64,000 nucleotides of DNA. Origin: a virus (taxonomy: Duplodnaviria > Heunggongvirae > Uroviricota > Caudoviricetes). A model generated the notes under the pieces. That model did not search any database. It saw nothing but the letters and a program-made list of their open reading frames with translations, and had not been told where the DNA came from. The stretch's first letter is position 1. Each line of letters starts with the position of its first letter. The stretch lies in the IMG/VR virus record IMGVR_UViG_3300046518_000157, positions 24,398-88,397 of that record, one strand, 5' to 3'. The translations under genes were made by a program, and so were the position numbers. Positions 5,594 to 56,709 of this stretch are shown here, in pieces.

Positions 5594-7252
5594 TTACAGG
5601 TTGCCAGCAATGAATTCCGAAATGAACCTCGGAGTTGCAGTATCGAAACCAACCACGTCAAGCATATTGCGGTCAGTCGGATCAGCAATGCTGAAGTTGT
5701 TCACAGCCATACCAACCGTGATCAGCTTAGCTTCAGGCTTGTTCATACCCTGACGATACTTGCGTACCGCTTGGAACACGTGTTGGCCGCCAGACCACGT
5801 TTCGTTATCCGTGTAAACACAGACAGCGTCAACGTCCCACTTATGTTGAAGCGCATACTCGAACGGCAATGCACAATTCGTACCACCGAAGTTGTGCGCA
5901 CGAACCTTACCACACGCCGTAGCCAAAGTATCTTTGGATGTGATCCCGAGATCCTTAAAGCCATTAGCGCCGCTCGTGAAACCACGGATCTCAGTCCACG
6001 GCTCTGTGCGAGCGGTGACCATAGCCATGATTGCCGTACCTTCAGCACAGCTCAACAGAGGCGTATTGCTGATCGGAGCACTCATTGAACCCGATACATC
6101 CAGGCCCAACAGAATGTTCTTACCGGACGGCTCTATCGCTTCAAACGAAACATAGAACGCATCTTCCAGATCAGCCACAATGGTACGGGCCGGAGTCCAT
6201 ACGAGTGAACCCTTATCGCCACGGCCTTGCGCGTAGATCTTCTGCGCAACTACGATTGACATCGGATGCAGACGTTCCTTGCGGATGGCTTCAACATCGT
6301 GGAGCTTGGCAGATACAATCTTGCTCGTTTCCGAGAAAGGCTTGATCAAACCAACTGCCGTGAGCTTGTTCAGGTTACGAACCAGCGCACCCAGACCCAT
6401 GTGAGGCACAAGAGCTTCCCAAACCTTCGGGTCATTCTTCTGCTCATTCGGAATCATTTCGTGCGTGAGCTTGAAATCCTGGATCAGCTTAATCAATGTC
6501 TTCGTATCTGCAGTCTTGGCTTGCTCTGCAGCAATCAGAAGTTGAGGCACGAGATCGCCTTGCGACAGCGACTCTGCACCCTTGTTGATAAACTTGTACA
6601 GGTTCTGACGAACCGGATCGGTGCCAGGCTTGACGTGAGCCAGACGCATGATGTCCTTGTGGGACCAGCCGTCACGTTGCTTGTACTTTACGATCTGGAA
6701 CGCAAGCTTATCGGTATCCTTTGAGGAATACCAGTTCTGAACTACATTCTTGAGCGAACGGCCCCAACCACGCATACCGTTTGCGAATGCAACGAAGTGC
6801 ATGAAGTGCGTGCCAGTACGAGCCACGAGATTCAGCTTATCCTTCGCATACAGCTTGGTTGCCACGTCGCCGTGGGTGAAGACCAGAGCCATGACCAGAA
6901 GCGCATAGTCATTGTTCTTTGCACGGCCAGCTTGGCTGATCTCTACCACACGATCAACCACAACCTTGCCATTTGCCTTGATGAGCTTCACGATCTCATC
7001 AGTGTTCTGCTTCGTGATATCCTTTTCGCTAGCGTAGAACGTACCGCCGCTCGTGCCGATGATAAGGAATCGATCCAGCTTTTGAAGGCCAGAGATCTCA
7101 AATACAAAGCCGCCAGCGTTGTTCTTGACCTGAGCTACCGGAGCGTTGCCAGCCGGGCGATTCTGCGGCGTGGTACGTGCAACAGTACGGGTATTGGTAT
7201 TCTTTGCGAGGGTATTGAATGACATTTGAGGCTCCTTAAGTTTAGGGAACAA
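5594..7252 (-). CDS. rsr: Ro60/Rsr ortholog (TROVE domain plus C-terminal vWA domain)
   Basis: RFLIIGTSGGTFYASEKD...ISQAGRAKNNDYALLVMALV matches the Ro60 TROVE signature (human Ro60 FLCFGSEGGTYY...[20 protein letters not shown]). A vWA MIDAS motif (LLGLDVSGSM) is present. RBS GGAG sits upstream of the ATG. Confidence 0.8.
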   Translation of the reverse strand: MFPKLKEPQMSFNTLAKNTNTRTVARTTPQNRPAGNAPVAQVKNNAGGFVFEISGLQKLDRFLIIGTSGGTFYASEKDITKQNTDEIVKLIKANGKVVVDRVVEISQAGRAKNNDYALLVMALVFTHGDVATKLYAKDKLNLVARTGTHFMHFVAFANGMRGWGRSLKNVVQNWYSSKDTDKLAFQIVKYKQRDGWSHKDIMRLAHVKPGTDPVRQNLYKFINKGAESLSQGDLVPQLLIAAEQAKTADTKTLIKLIQDFKLTHEMIPNEQKNDPKVWEALVPHMGLGALVRNLNKLTAVGLIKPFSETSKIVSAKLHDVEAIRKERLHPMSIVVAQKIYAQGRGDKGSLVWTPARTIVADLEDAFYVSFEAIEPSGKNILLGLDVSGSMSAPISNTPLLSCAEGTAIMAMVTARTEPWTEIRGFTSGANGFKDLGITSKDTLATACGKVRAHNFGGTNCALPFEYALQHKWDVDAVCVYTDNETWSGGQHVFQAVRKYRQGMNKPEAKLITVGMAVNNFSIADPTDRNMLDVVGFDTATPRFISEFIAGNL

Positions 7253-14782: not shown

Positions 14783-15521
14783 CCTTCACAGTGGAGAAAT
14801 CCACCACTTGTGCAGGATCGTTGGTAAGAAGCGAAGCCGACTGCGGGGTTACAACCTGTCCCGGAACTTCAGTCAGCAGCGACGTTTCGAGCTGAGACAT
14901 AGCACGGTTCATGTTCTCGCTCACTTGATCGATGGCAGTCTTCGACTTCAGCTCTTCCAGCAACTTGTCCGAATCCATCTGGGCCATACTGTTGAGCTTC
15001 TGCATCTCCAGCGCCATCTCGTTGACAGCCTTGCATTTCTCGATTTCAGCAAAGTACGTATCGAGCGCAGCGTCAGCCAGACGATAATTGTCCTGCCACT
15101 TCTTCAGAACCAGCTTCATGTTCGCATGATTCGTTTCGAACACTTCCGCTTGATCAGGAAACTTCTGCTTGAATCCAGCCAGCTTGTCACCGAAGTTTTT
15201 GATCTGTGTGCTCAGATTAGCAATTGCAGTCTGAGCTTCCTTCAGCTTGTCCTGCCGAGCATGAGCAACGTTGATCATTGTTTCAATCGGATTGCTCTTG
15301 GCTTCAGCTACGATGGCCTTGATCTTCCAGTTGGCGAACTTCATCGAGATCACCGGCGCGAAGTTGACAATAGCCAACGCCACAATACCAGCGATACCGA
15401 TACCAACCAAGCCCTTTACTAGCAGCATGATTGCAGGAGCCAGGATAGCAATCGCTATAGCGCCGATTGCGATTTTGACGATCCCCGCAACCTTTTTACG
15501 TTTCAAATCGATGTCGTTCAC
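14766..15521 (-). CDS. Membrane-anchored coiled-coil protein
   Basis: N-terminal transmembrane segment (IAIGAIAIAILAPAIMLLVKGLVGIGIAGIVALAIV) followed by a long helical region. The opposite-strand ORF 14583..15422 is rejected. Confidence 0.5.
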   Translation of the reverse strand: MNDIDLKRKKVAGIVKIAIGAIAIAILAPAIMLLVKGLVGIGIAGIVALAIVNFAPVISMKFANWKIKAIVAEAKSNPIETMINVAHARQDKLKEAQTAIANLSTQIKNFGDKLAGFKQKFPDQAEVFETNHANMKLVLKKWQDNYRLADAALDTYFAEIEKCKAVNEMALEMQKLNSMAQMDSDKLLEELKSKTAIDQVSENMNRAMSQLETSLLTEVPGQVVTPQSASLLTNDPAQVVDFSTVKVAQKV

Positions 15522-15727
15522 TTTGATTCTCCCTTTCCGGATTGGTAACCTTTGTTCCAGGACGCATGAAGCGGACTGAAAACACTGTAATTATTTTGAA
15601 TCTTGCCGTCGCCAGTGATTGCTGCAGTACGGCCTTCTTCAAAAGCTTCTTTATGCCACTCACTATCAATCTGACGCCAGCCCATGATTTTCCTTAGTAA
15701 ACTTCGGTTCGTGTGCCTTCGTAGCAC
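15518..15727 (-). CDS. Hypothetical small protein
   Basis: 69-aa ORF with a 4-nt overlap coupling to the upstream gene. Confidence 0.3.
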   Translation of the reverse strand: MLRRHTNRSLLRKIMGWRQIDSEWHKEAFEEGRTAAITGDGKIQNNYSVFSPLHASWNKGYQSGKGESK

Positions 15728-15984
15728 TCGTAGACGTAAACATGTTCAGGCTTAGTACAACCTTTGCCGCAGAAAACCCTACGTCCAGTAGGAGCTTCAA
15801 TGACAAGATTACATCCGTGTATACGAAGATCTTCGCTGTGCTGATATCGTGCGTAAAGACTCGCTGCAACGAAGACCAGCACAATTAGGATTAATCCCCA
15901 TACCAGATTTTCCTGCGATAGAAAATCGTACTCTTGCCTTCTGTGCAGACTCATTTGTTGTACCACGATACATGAGTTGCCCAT
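15694..15984 (-). CDS. Small membrane protein with a Cys-rich C-terminal tail
   Basis: Transmembrane segment LVWGLILIVLVFVAASLYA; C-terminal region has 5 Cys. Confidence 0.4.
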   Translation of the reverse strand: MGNSCIVVQQMSLHRRQEYDFLSQENLVWGLILIVLVFVAASLYARYQHSEDLRIHGCNLVIEAPTGRRVFCGKGCTKPEHVYVYECYEGTRTEVY

Positions 15985-16154
15985 TCCGGCTTTGCAGCGA
16001 AACTGTCAACCACCGACTCTTGCTTCTCGCCTTTACACCAGAAACCAGTTCCATCAGAAGGAATGAAAGCACCACATTCGACACTTTCAGCCCAATCCTT
16101 CGCCGTCATAACGTCTGCGTATCCCGGCACTTCGGTGAACTCATACTCAGTCAT
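15951..16154 (-). CDS. Hypothetical small protein
   Basis: 67-aa ORF whose ATG overlaps the upstream stop (TGACATGA). Confidence 0.35.
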   Translation of the reverse strand: MTEYEFTEVPGYADVMTAKDWAESVECGAFIPSDGTGFWCKGEKQESVVDSFAAKPEWATHVSWYNK

Positions 16155-16155
16155 G

Positions 16156-16290
16156 TCACCACCACCACTTGGAAAGAAAATGGAATCCTACGAAAGCAAC
16201 CGTTCCGAGGACTCCGATACAGATGAGTGCCACCAACACGAACCACAGTTCGATAATGGTGAATCCTTTTTGTTTGTGTTTCGAGAGCAT
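16156..16290 (-). CDS. 44-aa prepilin-like peptide (MLSKHKQKGFTIIELWFVLVALICIGVLGTVAFVGFHFLSKWWW)
   Basis: Matches the type IV pilin/pseudopilin class III signal (K/Q-G, then F-T-[LI]-I-E-L, then a hydrophobic helix). Hand-translated; below the ORF-track cutoff. Confidence 0.35.
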   Translation of the reverse strand: MLSKHKQKGFTIIELWFVLVALICIGVLGTVAFVGFHFLSKWWW

Positions 16291-16305
16291 GGCACTCCTT
16301 GTTAG

Positions 16306-17886
16306 TTAATTGCCAGGTCCATAGAGATTTATAGTAAAACTTACAGCATCCGTCAACGCATCTGAGAGCGTAATCGTAACTACATTACCACTTACAGTCA
16401 TTTCTGCATTAGCCCCGCCTAGATCATTATCTGTACGGAACTGTGGGAACCAGTTTGAACGACTGCATGTTTCAAAGTCCAAAGCAGTGTAAGTCGCACT
16501 TAGCGAACCGGCAGGGATATTAATCACTGGCAGGTTATATGTTTGCGGAATAATACGTGCACGTGTTGTACCTGACAGGAATGTCTTTCCTGCAGCAGGA
16601 AGGTTGTGTAGTCTCGTAGCTGAAATGCCACGTGAGCTACTATTATTAACCTTGATGACACCAGAAGTAAATGCCGATAGTGTTCCAGCACCACCAGACT
16701 CTAGAGTATCATTAAGATCAAGACCTTCAATGTATCCAGCCTTGATTGCGAAGTCTTGAGCTTCACTAGGAATCACTGCTGCACCACTTACGAACGAATC
16801 CCAACCACTATCTTCAAGCTTTAGCTGATAGAAGTTTGAATCAGTAGGCAACAGGTTAATAAATGCGTTACCGAGTCGCTCACAGCCAATACGCCTCCAT
16901 CTACTAGAGACCGTCATACCGGCTGTTACTGTAGATGCTAGACGGGGATCAAGAACATTGTCCTGATAGACGAAGTAAGGCGCATAGCCATTAAAGTAAT
17001 CGTCCATGTCTGCATGTACGCCGAAGCTACCATTTCTCGGCAGATAAAATGCTGCACGTTGTTCTGCGTTACTGGAACATTCTTTCCATGTCCAGTCGCC
17101 ACCAGTGCTTAGGATATTCCACGTTGCGAAATTACCTGTTGCACCGACGTTATCAAGTGAGCTGTGACCGTCATTAGTCCAAGCTGTATATGCGAAACGC
17201 ACGCCTGTTACGAAGAGATCTTTAGCATCGAACTTGTGATTACCACCATTACCGAAAATAATGCCATCCATCAAACAACCGGTCGTTCCAATTACTGCAC
17301 CCTTCTGACCAGGACCCATAATCTTGAAGCCACGATACTTAGCTGTGTCAAGCTTCCTTGGACCGTTGTACATCTGTAGACATGCAGTGCCAGCACCCAT
17401 GTCTTGTGACCAACGAAGAATTACACCGTCGTTCTGCCCACCCATTCTGTAAGATGAGCAAATGATGTGTTTATCAACTGATTTGAGTTGTACGCCAGAG
17501 CATAGGTACATGCCCCGAACCAGTTTAACGTTTGCGGTTAGAGGCGAATCAAGAGCCGCTTGGACTTTTGTACCTGTTTGGCTTAGGCCAGTGAAGTCAG
17601 CGCCATACCATACTGCTGAGTGATAATCATTGTAGATAGCGCCAGCGATAGTGCCACCCTTAGACAGATCAAAGATCGTCTGATAATCGCTTGCGTCGAT
17701 AAACGCATTTAGAAAGGTTACTACTACACCTGCTGCTGGTTGAAGGACCCCACCTTCATCGAAGATACAACGTCCGCTAAACGTTGTGTTAGCTACTACT
17801 GGGGTTAGACCTGATATACGAGTTACGTTCATGTTTGTACACTTTAAGTTAGGGTGATGCTTATATGCAGAGAGCATGTAAGACAC
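16306..17886 (-). CDS. Large hypothetical protein, Gly/Thr/Ser/Asn-rich (possibly beta-helical)
   Basis: 526-aa ORF with no recognised catalytic motif. Confidence 0.5.
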   Translation of the reverse strand: MSYMLSAYKHHPNLKCTNMNVTRISGLTPVVANTTFSGRCIFDEGGVLQPAAGVVVTFLNAFIDASDYQTIFDLSKGGTIAGAIYNDYHSAVWYGADFTGLSQTGTKVQAALDSPLTANVKLVRGMYLCSGVQLKSVDKHIICSSYRMGGQNDGVILRWSQDMGAGTACLQMYNGPRKLDTAKYRGFKIMGPGQKGAVIGTTGCLMDGIIFGNGGNHKFDAKDLFVTGVRFAYTAWTNDGHSSLDNVGATGNFATWNILSTGGDWTWKECSSNAEQRAAFYLPRNGSFGVHADMDDYFNGYAPYFVYQDNVLDPRLASTVTAGMTVSSRWRRIGCERLGNAFINLLPTDSNFYQLKLEDSGWDSFVSGAAVIPSEAQDFAIKAGYIEGLDLNDTLESGGAGTLSAFTSGVIKVNNSSSRGISATRLHNLPAAGKTFLSGTTRARIIPQTYNLPVINIPAGSLSATYTALDFETCSRSNWFPQFRTDNDLGGANAEMTVSGNVVTITLSDALTDAVSFTINLYGPGN

Positions 17887-19991: not shown

Positions 19992-21398
19992 TTATATTGC
20001 AGCGTTCCTGCGAACTTCATTGAACGTCAGTTCCTTCACGAGCTTACCACCAGTGTACACGACTTCGAGATGATCGTCACGACCCATTGCATTTTCACGA
20101 CGGATCGTAGTCAGTTCACCGCTTTCGTCACTGACAAGTGCCAGACGCCCCTTCTTGCTAGTCTTGCCACCAGCAACAGGATCCTTGTACACGTCATTCC
20201 ACTTGCCATCGATTTGAATTGCCGAAGCCTTCATTGCAAAGCCAAACGTATCACGGTCAAGCTTCTGGTGAAGAGCACCACCCATACCGAATGCAACGTT
20301 CTCAGCACTGAAACCATCCATCTTCAGAGCTGTGAGAATAGCTGCGATTGAGATCGGGTTTACACCGTCGCCTTGGATGACACGAACCTTGTTCAGGACT
20401 TTGAACCCTTTACCGTTCGTCGCGTATCCGAACTTGTCTGCGAGAATCCCAACAACCGTCCTAACAACCGACACCGGATCTCCGGAATCAGGTCTAACAA
20501 CGAGAGTACCAGGCAAAGCAAGGACAAAATCACGAAGGGTATCGCCCCAGACGTTTTTGACAGCATTAAAGATGTCGTAACTATCAGAGACAACTGCGAA
20601 AAGGCCACTGCCGAACTTCTCAGCCATATTACGATATGCGTCCGCTTCTCCTGAACGCCCCCAACTAGTAATAGTACTATGCTCAGCAGCAGGGATGCTA
20701 AACCCAAGAGAATCACGTTCTGCTCCGTAGAATTGATGAGCGTACTCCATGCCGAGCATGGTGTCCGTACCCATGAAGTTCACCAAGTGTGCGGCACCAG
20801 CAATAGCAGAAGTTTCTGCAGAACTAGCACCACGAGCACCGAAGTCATGAAGCTTAAAAGGAAGCTCGTCAAGCGGCTTATCGCACGTATCGACCAGTCC
20901 TTTGAAGATGATTTCTTTACAGTGACGGCTGATCGTCGCAACTGTGGTACCAAACCAGGCCGCACGAAGGATTTGCGTTTCATAGAATGAACCCATCCAA
21001 AGCATTTCGGGATCGTGACATTCGACGTCAATGATAGCATTGCCGATAGGCACTTGCGTACCTTCAGCTACAGCACGGATCGTGATAGGCGCACGACCTC
21101 CGTACACTTCCACCACTTTACGGAATGCGCCTTCTGCAAACGGCTCTCCGTGAAGCTTACAGATACGTCCTGCTTCAATCACGTCGTCAAGCGCAATCGG
21201 AGTCAGAAGGTGATCCTTGATGTAGCCTTGAAGGCCAAACGGAGTTACGTGTGTGATACCGAAACCGCTATTGTCCTTACGGGGTTCTACGTAAGAAGAC
21301 AGAGCAGTTGCACCAGCCGGGTATTGCAGGAAATGGCTGTGCTTGTATGAATCGGTATTGAGAAGCGGATTGATTTTGAATTGTGACATTATTAACAC
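19992..21398 (-). CDS. nadV: Nicotinamide phosphoribosyltransferase (NAMPT/NadV)
   Basis: LLNTDSYKHSHFLQYP, KLHDFGARGASS, SIPAAEHSTITSWG, VVSDSYDIFNA, RPDSGDP, VIQGDGV and KKGRLAL all match NAMPT conserved blocks. Confidence 0.85.
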   Translation of the reverse strand: MLIMSQFKINPLLNTDSYKHSHFLQYPAGATALSSYVEPRKDNSGFGITHVTPFGLQGYIKDHLLTPIALDDVIEAGRICKLHGEPFAEGAFRKVVEVYGGRAPITIRAVAEGTQVPIGNAIIDVECHDPEMLWMGSFYETQILRAAWFGTTVATISRHCKEIIFKGLVDTCDKPLDELPFKLHDFGARGASSAETSAIAGAAHLVNFMGTDTMLGMEYAHQFYGAERDSLGFSIPAAEHSTITSWGRSGEADAYRNMAEKFGSGLFAVVSDSYDIFNAVKNVWGDTLRDFVLALPGTLVVRPDSGDPVSVVRTVVGILADKFGYATNGKGFKVLNKVRVIQGDGVNPISIAAILTALKMDGFSAENVAFGMGGALHQKLDRDTFGFAMKASAIQIDGKWNDVYKDPVAGGKTSKKGRLALVSDESGELTTIRRENAMGRDDHLEVVYTGGKLVKELTFNEVRRNAAI

Positions 21399-21442
21399 CT
21401 CGTTAATTAGAATGCCCAGAATCTATTTCTGGGACTTTTGTT

Positions 21443-22600
21443 TTAGATACCAAGCATCTTGCGAATGATCGATGAGTGATCTTCGAAGATCAGTTCAGCG
21501 TGACTTAGTACATAGTCGATCTCGTACCAGTCTGTAGCCTTTTGCAAAGCGGTGCTTGCGACTGCATCGTCGCCACCCTTTACCTTAGGAAGCCCCGGCT
21601 TTTTGTCCGACTTATCCAGGTCAAAAAGAAAAGCGTGCGAAATAGTGCGCCCACGCAAACTACGGCCAGGATGATCAAAAACAACACCGGCAGACATACT
21701 ACCGCTAAGAAGACCTCTTGGAAGGTCAATCGAAGTTTCCTCTTGTAATTCACGGATCGCCGCATCTTCAAGCCTTTCATTTTGTTCCAGGAATCCTCCG
21801 GGTAATGCAAGGAGTCCTTCCCCCGGTGCAGCTTTACGCTTCACCATCAAAATATGACCAGCCTTCTTGACAATCGCATCGACAGTCACAAAGGTAGGTG
21901 CATACGGTGCTGCTTTCCAGGAGTCTTTGTACTTCTGCACCATCTTGTATTCACGTCCAAGACGCAGATACTCCGGAGTTTTGATGAACTCCTTGATGAA
22001 GCTAAAAGTGTACTCCGGAACCAAACTTTTGAGAAGCTCAATGAAACCAGGCTTCTCAAAGATTACTTCACGGATAGCTGTAGCATCAAAGCCAAGCTTG
22101 ACTTCGTCTACTGCAACGTAATCGTACTGCGGAAAGAGATCAAGGTAGTACGAGCTTTCGTCTTTCTTGTTACCGACGATTGCAACCTTGCTTTTTACAT
22201 CTTTGTCTGTCCAACCCTTTCCTGCCAAGAGAACAGTTGCTACTTCGTTTTGCACGGAAGTAACCCACTCATCATCTGAGTAGAGGTTATCCACAAGCGG
22301 AGCCGTGAAAATGTTCGAAGTACCAGCCGCTTGAATAACCATTTGCGAACGTTCATCGTACGTAAATGGATTCTTGATAGTGCGTGGTGCGTGCGAAGAA
22401 CCGATAAGAACCAATACCTTGTCAGCCACCATGAACGCCTTATTCAAAAGGATCTGGTGACCTACATGCAAGGGTTCGAAACGACCAATGACTACAGCCA
22501 GGTCGTATTGATTTTCTTCTGTGGATACTGCAAGTTGTTTACTGCCAAAAGTAGCTGCGTACATTTCAGCCACTTCATGATAAAGTTTACTATGTGACAT
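21443..22600 (-). CDS. nadM: Bifunctional NMN adenylyltransferase/ADP-ribose pyrophosphatase (NadM-Nudix)
   Basis: N-terminal nucleotidyltransferase motif VIGRFEPLHVGHQ (HxGH) and C-terminal Nudix box LPGGFLEQNERLEDAAIRELQEETSI. Confidence 0.8.
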   Translation of the reverse strand: MSHSKLYHEVAEMYAATFGSKQLAVSTEENQYDLAVVIGRFEPLHVGHQILLNKAFMVADKVLVLIGSSHAPRTIKNPFTYDERSQMVIQAAGTSNIFTAPLVDNLYSDDEWVTSVQNEVATVLLAGKGWTDKDVKSKVAIVGNKKDESSYYLDLFPQYDYVAVDEVKLGFDATAIREVIFEKPGFIELLKSLVPEYTFSFIKEFIKTPEYLRLGREYKMVQKYKDSWKAAPYAPTFVTVDAIVKKAGHILMVKRKAAPGEGLLALPGGFLEQNERLEDAAIRELQEETSIDLPRGLLSGSMSAGVVFDHPGRSLRGRTISHAFLFDLDKSDKKPGLPKVKGGDDAVASTALQKATDWYEIDYVLSHAELIFEDHSSIIRKMLGI

Positions 22601-23204: not shown

Positions 23205-24608
23205 TTACTTCTTGACAATGTCTTGCTCACCACGGCGAACAGTCCAGTCATCAACGTCCTTATCATAGAAAACTGGGACACCATAGTCTTCCAGATACTT
23301 ACCAAGTGCCTGAGCAAATGGACGGACAGTAGCGTGAACAGTTTTACCAGAACGAAGTTCAGCTACGTACATAGCTTGTTGAACGGTGTACTTGAAAGCC
23401 ACCTGAACAACATTACCCATCGGGAGAATGTATTGACCGAAAGCTAAGAAAGCTTCGTCGCTTTCACGAACATCCAACCTGTCATACGTATCCTCAATTT
23501 TTTCAAGCAACTCATCAGCCTTCTTCTGAAGTTCAGGCGTAAGATTGTCGTAGTACCAAGGATGAATACCATACTCTCCTGTTACAACTGGCATTGTGCA
23601 GTAGCCATTACGATGACGTTGGATATCCCGGAATGAACCGAAGTCCATTCTAGACTCGGTCCAAATAGTGGTTTGAGAAACAAGGGAATGTTTATGGAGT
23701 TTGGTACGCTTGGGGCGATTTTTAAACCCAGGACACAGAGCCCTGGAATCTTCGTCTTCAATAGCGACAGTAAATGTTCCCAATTCAATAGGGTCTGTTA
23801 TCCTTTCGTAGCCCGTCACCTCTTGATACATAGCGTAGAAGTTCTGGAAGTCAGAGTTAAACTCATACACGTTATTGCCTTCGATGTTCCTAAGCTCACG
23901 CTCAAACTCTTCTTGTGTTGAGCAATTAGCTACGATTGCGTAATCCAGACGGAACGAATTAGGATACTTCATCTGCATCTGTTGATACGCCTTAGCTCCA
24001 AGAACTCGAACTTCCTCAAGCGGATGGTGCATCATCCAAATGAGATGCTCACCAGCGTTGCTAAGTCGTCCAGTCCAAGCCACATTGGTAGTAGCACCGA
24101 CAGGGAGAAAACCACGAAGAATATCAAAAGCACGTGCAGCAATAGCCTTGTCATAGGTAACTAGCTTGTCGCCTTCCTTGATTGGGTACACTGTCTTGAG
24201 ATGAGCCTTCAGAGGCTCAAGACTCTCGACATAGAACTTACGATACTCAGCGTAAAGATTTGCAATCCGACCGCTCATTTCTGAGTTCTTCGGAGCAGGA
24301 TCATAGAAGGGTTGATAGCTGAAATCGATGTAACGTGAGCTACACTCCTGTCCTACGAAAAGAGGGTTATCTTCAATAGCCTTTGCAGCTAGCATTGAGA
24401 TACCCTCGAAATACATTGTTTCAGAACCGCAGTCACCAATAGACGCATGTCCGTATCCCAGGTAGTATCGGGACATGAAATTACTTGAACCGACCTCATC
24501 AATCTTCTTGATGTGATCGGCTACGCTATCGATACTACGTGAGTACAACGCTTGAAGCATTGCGTTGTCTTCTGCATTCATGCAGGTATGAAGGATGATT
24601 CTGGACAT
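23205..24608 (-). CDS. ThyX-like flavin-dependent thymidylate synthase, long form
   Basis: N-terminal half has GHASIGDCGSETMYFEGIS...SSRY, which matches the ThyX block GHASVFEHASATFLVEGIS...SQRY. An RHR motif occurs only in the C-terminal half (DIQRHRNGY), consistent with a duplicated, fused ThyX. Confidence 0.45.
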   Translation of the reverse strand: MSRIILHTCMNAEDNAMLQALYSRSIDSVADHIKKIDEVGSSNFMSRYYLGYGHASIGDCGSETMYFEGISMLAAKAIEDNPLFVGQECSSRYIDFSYQPFYDPAPKNSEMSGRIANLYAEYRKFYVESLEPLKAHLKTVYPIKEGDKLVTYDKAIAARAFDILRGFLPVGATTNVAWTGRLSNAGEHLIWMMHHPLEEVRVLGAKAYQQMQMKYPNSFRLDYAIVANCSTQEEFERELRNIEGNNVYEFNSDFQNFYAMYQEVTGYERITDPIELGTFTVAIEDEDSRALCPGFKNRPKRTKLHKHSLVSQTTIWTESRMDFGSFRDIQRHRNGYCTMPVVTGEYGIHPWYYDNLTPELQKKADELLEKIEDTYDRLDVRESDEAFLAFGQYILPMGNVVQVAFKYTVQQAMYVAELRSGKTVHATVRPFAQALGKYLEDYGVPVFYDKDVDDWTVRRGEQDIVKK

Positions 24609-52981: not shown

Positions 52982-55402
52982 TTAAAGACGCGGATCCATT
53001 TCTTTCTCTTGGTTGAGTTGCGAGATCATCTTCACAATCAACTCAGTCATTGCAGGACCGTTGTCAGCCGAAAGCATCTTCGTTGCCAGTTCGAACTCCT
53101 TGATAGAGACCTTCAGTTTACCACCAACTCGCTTCTGCTTGCACAGTGCTTCGTAGCGACGTTTGTAGTCGAAGCCATAGACGAGAGTCAGGTAATTTTC
53201 ATTCCGGACTTTCATATACGGTGCTACGTCTTCAGGTCCGGCGAGAGGTTTAATGACAACACCCTCCATGCCGTGTTCGATAGTCAGTTCCTTGAAGAAG
53301 TTTTCAGCCATTTGCAGCTGGCTCTCATCATCGAGATCGATGACCAGCCAGTCATCCCCATTCACTTCATCGAATGAGTCAGCTTGTTCAACGCGAGTAA
53401 ATACATTGCCATCGATTTTCAGAATTGCAAACGGCTTGTAATATGGCTCGCCAGTTGCGGAGTACAGATTCAGCGTATCCGAAAACGTCTTCAGATCGTT
53501 CTCAAGCAAATCCTGAGCATCGATCTTCTGCTTAAAGTCAAGCTTAGCAAATTCTTCGTCCTGAGCAAGTGTCGAAAGCTCATAGTGTACAAGACCTTCA
53601 TACGCTTTGAACTGCTCTTCAACAAGACCAGTACCAAGAGTCGTCCACGGCAGAAGCTCACCGTCCAGAATAAGTTCATCGAACGAATTCGGAAGGAACT
53701 TTTCTTCATACTCAGCAAGAAGCTTCTGAAGCATAACAGTAAGCTCTTCTGTCATGCGAATCTTGAATCCATTTCTGGAAACAAGGAAACACTTCTCCGG
53801 TTGACCGTGATACAGATACGCCTGACAACGTGAGCCCATGTACTTCGGTTGAATAGCAACCTGATCTACACCCTTGTCTTTGAAGTACTTAAGACCAGCT
53901 TCAAGGCTTTCGATCTTACCTTCGGTTGACGGAGCCGGAGCCATCGTACCAGAAATGTACTTAATGCCGTTCTTCAGCGTACGATTCAAAAACTTCATGT
54001 CGTCTGGAGACAACTTATAATCATAAATGCTGAAGGGACGCTCCTTCAAACCGATAGGTACGGTCAAGTCAGACTTCAACTCTTTTTGATGCTCGACCAG
54101 CGACTCGGTCTTGACATCGACGTAAACATATCGATTGTTTTTGTACGAAAACGCAGTAAGCTTGTTACCGTACACTGCTCCGGTATCCAGGAAGATCTTG
54201 TTACGGAACTCAATCTTACCGGCATTGTGAGCAACGTGACCGAATACATGAATAGGATGGTTACGAACAGCCTGATCGAAGATGAACTTGTACGCTTCAC
54301 GATAGTCTTTATCACGACGACCGAAAAGATTACGCTGCGCCTTAAGTGCATCATTGCTCAGCTTACCCAGATACTTGTTTTCACAAGGAGCATGGGTTAC
54401 ATACACGGTTCGTATATCCCGTCCAAATACTTTCAGGAACGGAGTAGAGTGATTGTCAAACAAGTCAACAAGCACGGCGGCAAGGTCAGGACGTTCCAGG
54501 AGAACCTTAAGTGAAGACATATACTTAGCCTCCAGTTCAAGATCAGGATTTTTGATTTCGCCCTTGATACGCTTCACAGCGTAGCTCTCATGGTTTCCGT
54601 GAATGATACGGCCACCTTCGTCAACAAACTTTGAAACCAGCCGAAGCATGTTCTCCGTGTCATTGCCTTTGTCTAGATAATCACCTACAAGAACGTTGAT
54701 ACTGTCCTTAGGCAACTTCTCCAGCATTTCAGTAAGACCCTTAACGTGCTCATGGGTATCACCGATGATGTTCAGCTCTTTGTTCGAAGTCAAGTACAAG
54801 CTGCTCTTGGCATAAACATCGAGGTCTTTGATTTCAACTTCGATATCAGCCCAGTACTTCGGATCACGTTCACGGATACGGATGTTTCCGTCGTGTTCTT
54901 TTCGGCCAAGGTTAGGAAGAACGTGCTGCTTAAAACGAGCTGCACTGCTGTCTACTACTAGCTTTTCTTCCGGCGTAGATTCAGACGAATATGACTTATT
55001 GGTGTACTCGAAAGTAACCAGTTCAGTACGATACTCGTTGGTTTCCGCAAGAGTCCTGACTTTCTTTCGGAACTCGTCGTTCATGCCAGTCGTATCAACG
55101 ATCACGAACTCGCTGTTGACAGGGAACATGATCGCAGCTTCAAGTTTCGCCATCAAGACCTTAAACGCGGCCTCTGAAGCCTCCGCCATGAGCGGGGAAT
55201 ACCGATGGAGGTTCTTATGGCCGTAAAGGCTCTCACGCTCGGAATCGGAGCTGATAATAGGAATTGCACAGCTCGCTCCAAGCCCTGCTTTGGCCATTTC
55301 TTCGCCAAGCGCAAGTTGAAGTTGGTGTGAGAACGTGCTCTTACCGCACATCGAAGGTCCGACGAGAATAAAAACGGTATGGAGCTTAGTTTCGATTTTC
55401 AT
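52982..55402 (-). CDS. pnkp: Polynucleotide kinase-phosphatase with a C-terminal ligase-like domain (bacterial Pnkp-type RNA repair enzyme)
   Basis: N-terminal P-loop (LVGPSMCGKST), a central calcineurin-like phosphoesterase (IIGDTHEH, GDYLDKGND, HGNHE), and a ~350-aa C-terminal domain with a candidate nucleotidyltransferase lysine (QPKYMGSR). Confidence 0.7.
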   Translation of the reverse strand: MKIETKLHTVFILVGPSMCGKSTFSHQLQLALGEEMAKAGLGASCAIPIISSDSERESLYGHKNLHRYSPLMAEASEAAFKVLMAKLEAAIMFPVNSEFVIVDTTGMNDEFRKKVRTLAETNEYRTELVTFEYTNKSYSSESTPEEKLVVDSSAARFKQHVLPNLGRKEHDGNIRIRERDPKYWADIEVEIKDLDVYAKSSLYLTSNKELNIIGDTHEHVKGLTEMLEKLPKDSINVLVGDYLDKGNDTENMLRLVSKFVDEGGRIIHGNHESYAVKRIKGEIKNPDLELEAKYMSSLKVLLERPDLAAVLVDLFDNHSTPFLKVFGRDIRTVYVTHAPCENKYLGKLSNDALKAQRNLFGRRDKDYREAYKFIFDQAVRNHPIHVFGHVAHNAGKIEFRNKIFLDTGAVYGNKLTAFSYKNNRYVYVDVKTESLVEHQKELKSDLTVPIGLKERPFSIYDYKLSPDDMKFLNRTLKNGIKYISGTMAPAPSTEGKIESLEAGLKYFKDKGVDQVAIQPKYMGSRCQAYLYHGQPEKCFLVSRNGFKIRMTEELTVMLQKLLAEYEEKFLPNSFDELILDGELLPWTTLGTGLVEEQFKAYEGLVHYELSTLAQDEEFAKLDFKQKIDAQDLLENDLKTFSDTLNLYSATGEPYYKPFAILKIDGNVFTRVEQADSFDEVNGDDWLVIDLDDESQLQMAENFFKELTIEHGMEGVVIKPLAGPEDVAPYMKVRNENYLTLVYGFDYKRRYEALCKQKRVGGKLKVSIKEFELATKMLSADNGPAMTELIVKMISQLNQEKEMDPRL

Positions 55403-56709
55403 GCTTGATCCTTGTTCTTAGTTACTACCACCATCGTCGAAGTAGCAATGTTATTTACACTATCACCGATTCCTTGAACAGAAATAGAGATTGCATGACC
55501 TTCCGAAACATTCCAGAACCAGTCACCGAATTCTTTAAGGCCCGGCTCCCACTTGTGATCATCATGACGGAACTGTGTTTCGTCCATCAGATAGTTCACA
55601 TTGAATTCCTTGTTAGGAACCGTGAGAATCAGCTTGTTGAAGTTAGTCTTCAGCACGGCTTGAATCAGCTCTGCTGCGACATCCTTTTCCATGTGTTCAA
55701 GCACTTCAGTGATGAGTACATCAGCTCCATCGAATAGAGCGCTGCAATCGTCAATTGATTCAGGAGTTGCTGCTTCTTTGAAGGTGATATTCTCAACTCC
55801 TCGACCACTGGCTTTCCCCACGGCGTTCTCACGTACTTCGTCATCCGCTTCATACGCAAGGATTTGTTCATACTTTGCACTGAGCGGGATCGAATAATTG
55901 AGTTCGCCGCACCCAATGTCAATGAGGACCGACCCTCCTCCCAAATGCGGGAAGATAGCCTCTTTACGTTGACTGAGAGTGTCCCCGTGCCAGAGGTTAA
56001 TACTGGGCGTATCGAGCAACGGCTTGTTTTTAGCAAAGGTTTCACGATTCGTAAACACATTCCGTTTAAAGAGGTATCGGATGAAGTAAGGTGCATCGAT
56101 GCGATTAATTGCATTGATGTACTTTTCAATGATATCTCCCTTAAGGTTGACGTAAATGCTCTTTGTCGTAACGCAGAACATCAAGAAAATAACCATTGCT
56201 GCATTCAGAAGATGATGAACACTAGGTCCGACAATGCGAACTTTGTATGCATGACCAGAAATCAGTTCTGCATGAAAGCTGTAGCCTTGATCGAAACCAA
56301 ACGGCCCATTGAAATGTTGCTCCATGTGCCTAAGCGTGCTTGCACTGCGAATCTCAACCGTAGTTTCGAGCCATGCGCTAAAAGGAACACTAGCATCTTC
56401 TTCCTGATGTTCTTTGAACGCAGTTGCCAGGCAGTTCGTCATCAGGCTAATCGGAAGGTACGGCGAAGCATAGCGAGTACGATCAAGATACTCAAACTCC
56501 TGGTCCCGCCCTTCGGCAAATGAGCAGTGCAGAGCATGATCCTTGAACCACAACCTAAAAGCTTGGTCTCCTTCTAGAAACCATCCGTACACTGAACCTT
56601 GTCGGATGGACTTCTTAAACGGATCTTTCGATTCACGAATCGTTGCGGGGTTTTTCTGAATGACCCAAGAAAACTTCGGGTTACTAGACCCAAGAGTAAG
56701 CACTGACAT
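55399..56709 (-). CDS. hen1: Hen1-like RNA 3'-terminal 2'-O-methyltransferase
   Basis: C-terminal Rossmann MTase motif I (VLIDIGCGE) with Hen1-type metal ligands (EVLEH ... RHDDH). A 4-nt overlap couples it to pnkp. Confidence 0.6.
   Translation of the reverse strand: MSVLTLGSSNPKFSWVIQKNPATIRESKDPFKKSIRQGSVYGWFLEGDQAFRLWFKDHALHCSFAEGRDQEFEYLDRTRYASPYLPISLMTNCLATAFKEHQEEDASVPFSAWLETTVEIRSASTLRHMEQHFNGPFGFDQGYSFHAELISGHAYKVRIVGPSVHHLLNAAMVIFLMFCVTTKSIYVNLKGDIIEKYINAINRIDAPYFIRYLFKRNVFTNRETFAKNKPLLDTPSINLWHGDTLSQRKEAIFPHLGGGSVLIDIGCGELNYSIPLSAKYEQILAYEADDEVRENAVGKASGRGVENITFKEAATPESIDDCSALFDGADVLITEVLEHMEKDVAAELIQAVLKTNFNKLILTVPNKEFNVNYLMDETQFRHDDHKWEPGLKEFGDWFWNVSEGHAISISVQGIGDSVNNIATSTMVVVTKNKDQA

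Follow-up and report, generated by a model that had tools for sequence, protein, structure and literature searches.

A phage-specific family of prepilin-like microproteins, apparently undescribed, and its possible action on the type IV filament systems of the host

The DNA analyzed here, hereafter termed the window, is a stretch of 64,000 nucleotides (positions 24,398 to 88,397) of the IMG/VR record IMGVR_UViG_3300046518_000157, a virus of the class Caudoviricetes. The minus strand of the window, which is the coding strand of all genes around the element in question, carries at 16156-16290 a gene for a microprotein of 44 residues, MLSKHKQKGFTIIELWFVLVALICIGVLGTVAFVGFHFLSKWWW. A first-pass annotation of the same DNA had called this open reading frame (ORF) and had assigned a type IV prepilin signal to it; the ORF is present at these positions, and its strand is now added. 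The sequence comparisons described below indicate that the ORF is a real phage gene under selection, with predicted translation, and not a chance ORF. It belongs to an apparently undescribed family of 'headless pilins', which, on sequence, is best placed among the pilin-like proteins as a new variant specific to phages; its members have the sequence features that define a class III signal-peptide protein. We infer the role of this family from sequence and from analogous systems. The reading that we favor, and to which we give an even chance, is that the microprotein is processed by PilD to a 'headless pilin' in the inner membrane and disturbs either the assembly of type IV filaments or the sensing of pilins. 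The microprotein probably sabotages or spoofs the pilus or secretion machinery of the host.

A class III signal begins with a hydrophilic, basic leader of approximately 6-26 residues that ends with Gly at position -1, and continues with a hydrophobic residue (usually Phe) at +1, Glu at +5 and a helix of about 21 mostly hydrophobic residues (PMC4471445). The N-terminal motif alone suffices to insert the protein into the membrane, and the leader then faces the cytoplasm; Gly(-1) is critical for cleavage, and Glu5 is not needed for cleavage but is needed for the assembly of filaments or homopolymers (PMC4471445). The window protein has a basic leader of nine residues ending with Gly(-1), Phe10 at +1, Thr at +2 and Glu14 at +5, and its hydrophobic stretch reaches Phe38, so that the prepilin signature noticed in the first-pass annotation is borne out. 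Cleavage by a prepilin peptidase is predicted to occur after Gly9 and would convert the 44-residue precursor into a mature form of 35 residues. When the window is scanned in six frames for G-[FMILVYW]-[STA]-x-x-E, the microprotein is the sole match at an ORF N-terminus that is followed by a hydrophobic stretch. A DNA pattern that unites this motif with the C-terminal motif of the family described below matches once in the window, as compared with 0.00 matches expected from shuffled sequences.

The same signature is recognized by existing models in most members of the family. Pfam N_methyl (PF07963) matches 23 of the 25 members tested, with a best E-value of 3e-11, and precomputed PF07963 matches are present on many of the members that were found by the profile search. 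The matches between the family profile and solved type IV pilins in the PDB are confined to profile positions 1-26; the best match is Geobacter PilA-N (3.8e-6), and the others are MshA, PilA, PpdD and PilE. By its sequence, the motif G/FTLIEL, in which the slash marks the cleavage site, is type IVa-like. The combination of the Flp motif (G/xxxxEY) and a Flp_Fap match is not found, one of the 25 members giving a weak Flp_Fap match (E=0.005). A match to DUF6186 (E=0.013) is given by only two of the 25 members and was taken as noise. Automatic pipelines label members of the family as 'PulG', 'PilE' or 'prepilin-type domain protein'.

The family was collected by an exhaustive phmmer search of 1.84 billion (1.84e9) protein cluster representatives with the window protein as the query, and by a profile search. 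The phmmer search gives 24 proteins at E<=1e-3, all of which cover the query nearly in full and 22 of which are 38-43 residues long; it adds 23 full-length relatives, each of approximately 40 residues, to the window protein. The profile search gives about 85 further clusters at E<1e-7, almost all of 36-43 residues. A word-indexed single-sequence protein search finds only a 43-residue variant of the window protein (IMG/VR UViG_3300017792_000017). Exactly the same protein as that of the window is encoded on Joint Genome Institute (JGI) contigs from the samples 3300046528 and 3300046665. Search matches and members read from fetched loci together give 102 unique members, which were collected with a pattern that requires Gly(-1) and all of which have this residue. 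The proteins of the family are approximately 37-44 residues long; 'members' of 49-107 residues contain an internal Met immediately 5' of the basic leader, and look like the products of mis-called starts. In an alignment that was built by overall similarity, and is therefore unbiased by the motif pattern, conservation reaches at least 90% at each of Q7, G9, T11 and E14. The leaders of the collected members mostly have 6-9 residues and a net charge of +2 or +3, with Q at -3. Among the 78 members with a mature form of 34 residues, F or Y is present at +1 in 100%, T at +2 in 97%, E at +5 in 94% (73/78) and L at +6 in 85%.

The C-terminus of the family has the consensus H-F-[ILV]-x-K-[F/W]-W directly at the stop codon. 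The H, F, K and final W of this motif are invariant in the similarity-built alignment, and each of the 102 members has them. Four residues ahead of the motif His there is an aromatic residue, usually Tyr, and the stretch from E(+5) to HF consists of V, L, I, G or A to 74% across the family, nearly without charged residues. AlphaFold2, with an alignment of 73 sequences, predicts a single helix of residues 12-42 with a mean pLDDT of 90.5. None of the models in Pfam, NCBIfam and PHROGs extends over the C-terminal motif. Neither the family nor this motif is found to be described in these three collections, in PADLOC or in the literature searched, and the strings HFIAKFW and HFISKFW are absent from approximately 8 million papers. 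The first-pass annotation had proposed a mimic of the pilin N-terminus. The mimicry of a prepilin is upheld, but the protein is more than a mere N-terminus mimic, because its invariant C-terminal motif, which that annotation had not noticed, equals the prepilin motif in conservation.

The predicted mature forms of the 102 members, counted regardless of phylogeny, have 31 (15 members), 34 (78 members), 35 (seven members) or 38 residues (two members), and none has 32, 33, 36 or 37 residues. These lengths differ in steps of approximately one helical turn, which suggests that the pilin face at the N-terminus must hold a fixed angular register with the C-terminal motif. Along the mid-helix, conservation has a suggestive but not significant periodicity (best angle of 94 degrees, permutation p=0.07). 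The window protein ends with WWW and its variant with WW; the rest of the family ends with a single [F/W]-W. The two near-identical contigs (window 16159-16167 and locus L003 7597-7728) encode KWWW and KWW respectively, one TGG codon apart, as if by triplet slippage within the run TGGTGGTGG.

The ORF starts with ATG at 16290-16288 and ends with TGA at 16158-16156, as read from the sequence, and it is tightly packed with its neighbors on the same strand. The stop of the upstream 526-residue gene (16306) is 15 nt before the start of the microprotein gene, and the ATG of the downstream 67-residue gene (16154) is 1 nt past its TGA. Purine-rich, GGAG-like sites are also located 5' of most family members at other loci. 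A related phage, L019, whose neighboring genes are 82-90% identical to those of the window, has the microprotein at the same place with 70% amino acid identity. The two orthologous genes differ by synonymous changes only at 16 codons and by nonsynonymous changes at 13 codons. All 13 amino acid changes are located within the uncharged helix or the leader, and the codons for the motif residues K, G, F, T, H and F have undergone synonymous changes only. The nonsynonymous rate (dN) of this pair is 0.17 and the synonymous rate (dS) is saturated. At the level of sequence, the microprotein is thus shown to be under purifying selection. By this result, and by the recovery of about 100 similar microproteins nearly all on phage contigs, the gene is conserved as well as phage-encoded, and the lack of conservation that the first-pass annotation had named as a refutation does not apply.

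It might be argued that the gene is a chance ORF or a decaying, functionless 5' fragment of a captured pilin gene, since the window protein alone scores below the thresholds of curated profile hidden Markov models (HMMs) and the gene is missing from two related phages. However, a chance ORF or a fragment is not expected to have about 100 full-length homologs of uniform architecture in which an invariant C-terminus directly precedes the stop codon, a ribosome-binding site, tight packing with its neighbors, purifying selection in an ortholog pair and a spread over unrelated phage lineages. This possibility is therefore very unlikely indeed.

On the evidence of sequence searches, the family is shown to be phage-borne and phage-specific. 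A strict two-motif DNA pattern does not match any of 185,579 bacterial species-representative genomes and matches five distinct viral contigs. A relaxed DNA pattern gives four matches in the same 185,579 genomes, all of which are true members: two in Paraburkholderia genomes and two on contigs of metagenome-assembled genomes (40 and 106 kb). One of the two proteins encoded in the Paraburkholderia genomes is identical to that of the IMG/VR locus L010; the prophage L022 carries a third Paraburkholderia copy. Thirteen IMG/VR loci carry a member of the family on contigs of 20-353 kb, and metagenomic carrier contigs, which are composed of unannotated small ORFs, are up to 490 kb long. The carriers include T4-like, T5-like, jumbo and temperate phages and prophages. 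The GC content of the carrier loci varies from 27 to 60%, suggesting that the hosts are diverse.

Members in cultured phages are found in two Aeromonas phages. In Aeromonas phage Ahp1_CNU-2021 (Straboviridae), the member is annotated as hypothetical and is located in the tRNA region. In Aeromonas phage vB_AdhS_TS3 (Demerecviridae, T5-like), a member of 37 codons, MKRAKGFTLIELIFCILALGLLGGGGYVVIHFIAKFW (L026 5001-5114, which corresponds to OP820700.1 7483-7596), is located approximately 7.5 kb from the left end (within 7.6 kb), in a block with the gene A1. The TS3 member is unannotated in GenBank, and its ATG starts at the final base of the preceding annotated coding sequence; gene callers miss such ORFs, as this copy exemplifies. 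A tblastn search of cultured phages with the 44-residue protein gives matches at E>=1 only, one of which, that of Aeromonas phage Ahp1, is a true member. In the Paraburkholderia prophage L022 and in the JGI contig L034, which contains an integrase gene, the member belongs to the early-left operon and has the repressor or switch region on one side and the ERF/YqaJ/SSB/integrase genes on the other.

In these loci, the gene invariably runs in the same direction as arrays of small ORFs and is located in early or non-structural regions. Such early or accessory positions fit genes for host takeover or superinfection exclusion. All-versus-all BLAST of the same-strand ORFs within approximately 3.5 kb at 14 loci does not detect a conserved partner beyond close relatives. 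This absence of a cross-lineage neighbor suggests that the target must be a component of the host or that the protein must act by itself.

The family shares the short basic leader, the Q-K-G/F-T-L-I-E-L consensus and the hydrophobic helix with type IVa pilins and pseudopilins (PilA/PilE/PpdD/MshA, Geobacter PilA-N and GspG). However, it has neither the alpha1-C region nor the globular head of these proteins, it lacks their helix-breaking pair G14/P22, and its mature forms have 31-38 residues as compared with at least approximately 44 residues for the shortest known pilins. Pilins do not have the HF[ILV]xK[F/W]W end of the family, the members of which are encoded by phages and lack assembly genes in their vicinity. 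Among the known type IVb prepilins, those of Caulobacter are the shortest, with approximately 44 residues (PMC4471445), and Caulobacter PilA is described as a 59-amino-acid polypeptide (PMC7196804). The earlier statement that the ORF is far shorter than any pilin is accordingly slightly overstated. Judged by its sequence and its structural model, the window protein lacks a head domain and ends 35 residues past the cleavage site, and is therefore not a structural pilin or pseudopilin.

A polymerizing mini-pilin, in which the host assembles the 34-residue peptide into a filament or as a filament, is very unlikely. Virus-encoded pilins that assemble are exemplified by PilA1/2 of the archaeal virus SNJ2 (PMC12426801). 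The family retains all N-terminal assembly residues and has an aromatic residue at mature position 24. Type IVa pilins have Tyr24. However, the peptide has no residue past the transmembrane helix and thus nothing to form a soluble filament surface, its helix consists of V, L, I, G or A to 74%, even the shortest known pilins are longer (PMC4471445), and the pilins in the PDB align to profile positions 1-26 only.

The favored reading, that of a processed headless pilin which interferes with the host, may be outlined as follows. The basic leader and the hydrophobic helix would place the peptide in the inner membrane of the host in an N-in/C-out orientation like that of a prepilin. The host prepilin peptidase (PilD/GspO) would then cut after Gly9, probably with N-methylation of Phe10. 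Processing by PilD is likely. The product would be a mature peptide of 31-38 residues, typically 34-35 residues, which corresponds to the alpha1-N helix of a pilin without the globular head. At the periplasmic interface, H-F-[ILV]-x-K-[F/W]-W would cap the helix, and this aromatic/His/Lys cap would provide specific binding. With the pilin assembly residues F1, T2, E5 and the aromatic residue at position 24 retained, the peptide may engage the proteins that handle pilins in the membrane; the platform protein, the alignment complex, the peptidase and the base of the growing fiber are the candidates. The mature helix could obstruct the apparatus by which pilins are drawn out of the membrane. As the outcome, type IV pili, and possibly the pseudopili of the type II secretion system (T2SS) and of competence, would be disabled early in infection, which would benefit the phage by superinfection exclusion or by another takeover of the host surface. 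The case for an action on type IV filament systems is evenly balanced, whereas superinfection exclusion as the benefit is possible but rather doubtful. Glu(+5) is kept in 94% of the 34-residue forms, although it is dispensable for cleavage, which argues for engagement of an assembly interface and not for a signal peptide alone.

Type IV filament systems (pili, T2SS and competence pili) are major machines of virulence, motility and DNA uptake, and serve as phage receptors. To our knowledge, only a handful of phage inhibitors of these filaments, Tip, Aqs1 and PfsE, are known, mostly from Pseudomonas phages. The best functional analog for the proposed role is PfsE (PA0721) of the filamentous phage Pf4, a 30-residue inner-membrane protein that binds PilC and has a cytoplasm-facing N-terminus (PMC8764522). 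PfsE, which is reported from Pf prophages of P. aeruginosa, blocks type IV pili and excludes pilus-dependent phages (PMC8764522). By this description, it resembles the family as a phage-encoded inner-membrane microprotein with a conserved aromatic cluster. It differs from the family in that no prepilin signal is described for it and in that its aromatic cluster YAWGW (residues 16-20) is in the middle of the helix, whereas that of the family is C-terminal. Aqs1 of DMS3 and Tip of D3112 are small soluble phage inhibitors of type IV pili that function in superinfection exclusion, and Aqs1 also switches off the T2SS and DNA uptake (PMC13436744, PMC8764522). Both are described as binding the ATPase PilB, and neither involves pilin mimicry. 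Compared with the PilB binders Aqs1 and Tip and the PilC binder PfsE, the family possibly represents a new type of anti-pilus factor, a substrate mimic in the membrane.

A headless pilin that is active by itself is exemplified by the CIP peptide, which consists of residues 1-17 of mature Caulobacter PilA and is sufficient to bind the first transmembrane segment (TM1) of the kinase PleC (PMC7196804). When CIP is added to cells, pilus function is impaired and the susceptibility to the pilus-specific phage phiCbK is reduced by 77% (PMC7196804). CIP resembles the mature peptide of the family as the transmembrane segment of a headless pilin. However, it was obtained in the laboratory by truncation of a host pilin of the Flp type (IVb/c) and is not the product of a natural gene, it does not have the C-terminal motif, and it acts by signaling and not by a block of assembly. 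The precedents of PfsE and CIP make the proposed mechanism plausible.

The CIP results (PMC7196804) also speak for a different action, in which the microprotein mimics the pilin pool in signaling. The mature helix would pass for the pilin monomers stored in the inner membrane and bind the transmembrane segments of pilin-sensing histidine kinases (PilS in Pseudomonas-like hosts, or kinases of the PleC type), so that pilin transcription is turned off or programs of pilus retraction and cyclic di-GMP are triggered. The pilin consensus QKGFTL[IV]EL is kept almost exactly in the family. PilA reportedly regulates its own expression through an intramembrane contact with PilS (Kilmury and Burrows, 2016). 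The signaling action leaves the invariant C-terminal motif unexplained, and a transcriptional route would be slow for the virulent T4-like, T5-like and jumbo carriers. One shared sensor is unlikely across hosts with 27-60% GC. Pro22 contributes to the interaction with PilS, but the family does not have Pro22. An action through pilin-sensing kinases alone is accordingly quite unlikely.

Other phages encode short pilin-like ORFs with a prepilin-type N-terminus, which are early or accessory genes and are mostly annotated as hypothetical. These are represented by PAK_P3 gp139, by PHROGs 13280, 10597, 11263, 27437 and 11596, and by phrog_3433 ('pilin'). PAK_P3 gp139 (59 residues; L027 2501-2680) differs from the family by the hydrophilic tail that follows its helix and by the absence of the HF[ILV]xK[F/W]W end. 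The window protein matches those PHROGs through its N-terminal part only (residues 2-36), and the family has no PHROG of its own. A tblastn search gives 106 phage records with N-terminal matches only, of which 50 are from Synechococcus phages and 40 from Pseudomonas phages (PAK_P3-like), and which also include Xanthomonas, Acinetobacter and Delftia phages. This result suggests that the use of prepilin signals by phages is broader than the headless-pilin family.

Several points weigh against the favored reading. The window protein alone is below the cut-offs of the curated models, both for Pfam N_methyl (E=5.8e-4, 19.8 bits against a cut-off of 21.2) and for TIGR02532 (12.7 bits against a cut-off of 16.3). 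The annotated neighbors are phage genes, with no pilus, T2SS or prepilin-peptidase gene nearby in any locus examined, and neither genomes nor experiments tie the family to a pilus, T2SS or competence gene. The presence of PilD and type IV pili in the host of the window phage is assumed, and the tailspike-like gene upstream of the microprotein gene gives no hint that pili are the receptor of this phage. Two relatives at 69% identity do not have the microprotein after the homologous 526-residue beta-helix gene. This absence suggests that the microprotein gene is dispensable and mobile; on sequence evidence, it is selected for where it is present and yet accessory. Finally, the C-terminal motif has no counterpart in pilins, and the function could be unrelated to pili.

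In the latter case, the microprotein would be a membrane effector for which the class III signal is only a compact device for insertion, topology and maturation. It might block DNA injection like T4 Imm, affect the membrane potential, set the timing of lysis like a holin or antiholin, or act on another machine of the envelope. In favor of such an effector, the C-terminal motif is no less invariant than the prepilin motif and is foreign to pilins, the gene is located among other small early genes for membrane proteins or proteins without known function, and a nearby 251-residue membrane protein has a weak match to a holin PHROG. In contrast, E(+5), T(+2) and F(+1) are each kept in at least 94% of the 34-residue forms, although they are unneeded for insertion or cleavage. 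No endolysin or spanin gene is adjacent to the microprotein gene in the window, and the carrier regions at the other loci are early or accessory ones (a T5-like left-end block, temperate early-left operons and a T4-like tRNA region) and no lysis cassettes. The microprotein itself has no match to a holin PHROG. An effector unrelated to pili is unlikely on balance, but is to be taken seriously. A holin or lysis-cassette assignment was rejected from the context and because the microprotein has no holin match in PHROGs or Pfam. An assignment to a defense system was also rejected, with no PADLOC match for the microprotein or for four neighboring proteins.

If the favored reading of a headless pilin that interferes with type IV filaments is correct, a widespread family of peptides of approximately 40 residues hijacks the prepilin pathway and represents a mechanistically distinct class of inhibitors, that of substrate mimics within the membrane. 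The recurrent mis-annotation of phage metagenome proteins as PulG- or PilE-like would then be explained, and the family would offer a minimal natural probe of how PilD, PilC and pilin-sensing kinases recognize pilins in the membrane. From the sequences, it is conceivable, though somewhat short of an even prospect, that the headless pilins form a class of chain terminators or decoys of type IV pili, the T2SS and competence pili in many phage lineages, and thus a portable anti-pilus strategy. Such a decoy class would provide a ready-made 34-residue scaffold for peptide inhibitors, and the quantized lengths of 31, 34/35 and 38 residues would reflect the register required between the pilin face and the C-terminal 'warhead'.

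The positions of the features are summarized in Table 1.

Table 1. Positions of the microprotein gene, its parts and other features in the window
Feature	Position	Strand	Remarks
Microprotein gene, 44 codons + TGA	16156..16290	-	From ORF list and sequence; prepilin-like 'headless pilin'
Shine-Dalgarno sequence AAGGAG	16295..16300	-	Read from sequence; 4-nt spacer to the microprotein ATG
Predicted leader MLSKHKQKG, residues 1-9	16264..16290	-	Three Lys and one His; Gly(-1) is the last residue
Prepilin motif Q-K-G-F-T-I-I-E-L, residues 7-15	16246..16272	-	Pfam N_methyl aligns to residues 5-15
Predicted mature peptide F10-W44, 35 residues	16159..16263	-	One continuous predicted transmembrane helix
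C-terminal motif H37-F38-L39-S40-K41-W42-W43(-W44)	16159..16182	-	Family-defining
Upstream gene, 526 residues, right-handed beta-helix, tailspike/polysaccharide-depolymerase-like	16306..17886	-	AlphaFold2 and Foldseek
Downstream gene, 67 residues, phrog_14149	15951..16154	-	Not a conserved partner
Ro60/TROVE-vWA protein	5594-7252	-	RNA-handling gene
Hen1-N methyltransferase	55399-56709	-	RNA-handling gene
806-residue protein, phage homologs annotated as metallophosphoesterase	52982-55402	-	Directly downstream of Hen1, 4-nt overlap
21 tRNA genes	25897-46901	-	
NAD+ salvage pair, NAMPT and NMNAT-NUDIX fusion	19992-22600	-	Beside ThyX and NT5C nucleotidase; block kept in L001 and L019

The AlphaFold2 model of the 526-residue protein encoded upstream has a mean pLDDT of 79.8, and Foldseek matches it in the PDB to the Sf6 tailspike (1.2e-5), the K64-1 depolymerase and the phiAB6 tailspike. 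Homologs with 54-70% identity are present in records of Caballeronia glathei and Paraburkholderia azotifigens. A homolog in a Caballeronia prophage is located beside baseplate and tail-fiber genes and an endolysin gene, and the Caballeronia-like homolog in the IMG/VR locus L004 (6013-7545) is flanked by tail-fiber genes and an endolysin gene. These homologs hint, on sequence, at a Burkholderiaceae host or at gene exchange, although the GC content of the window is 46%. In the window phage, the tailspike-like beta-helix gene is located amid a nucleotide-metabolism module. A scan for promoters and terminators between this gene and the microprotein gene gives nothing above the shuffled expectation, and the two genes are probably in one transcription unit. 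The upstream gene was also considered as a pilus-binding receptor protein that forms a pair with the microprotein like oad-llp of T5; this assignment is unsupported, and the fold resembles that of polysaccharide-directed tailspikes.

In L019, an unrelated 74-residue gene takes the place of the 67-residue gene located downstream in the window. The first-pass annotation had placed the microprotein gene in a cluster of small membrane-protein genes. This description holds only in part: as read by eye, the adjacent 86- and 251-residue products have hydrophobic segments, but the 67-, 55- and 64-residue products look soluble, and the upstream gene is tailspike-like. The holin PHROG match of the 251-residue membrane protein has an E-value of 0.002. 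The 55-residue ORF (15518-15685, minus strand) has a weak match to Pfam RMF (E=2.8e-4, 21.3 bits, below the cut-off of 27.9) over profile positions 8-49 of 53, and may encode a phage ribosome-hibernation factor.

The window as a whole represents the replication, nucleotide-metabolism and RNA module of a large phage. Neither megablast of the 5 kb around the ORF nor tblastn of the 526-residue protein gives a match in 50,697 phage records, suggesting that the window phage is novel; tblastn of the 806-residue protein gives distant partial matches only (Vibrio phage RYC and Xanthomonas phage XacN1). The gene set includes those for DNA polymerase A, RNR, ThyX, NAMPT, NMNAT-NUDIX, Ro60/TROVE, Hen1 and a large metallophosphoesterase, in addition to 21 tRNAs. 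By their sequences, Hen1 and the 806-residue protein look like an RNA repair pair of the Pnkp/Hen1 type. Among the tRNAs, that at 37443-37515 has an odd anticodon call, and that at 38676-38751 has the anticodon CTA, is called 'Pyl' by ARAGORN and could be an amber suppressor.

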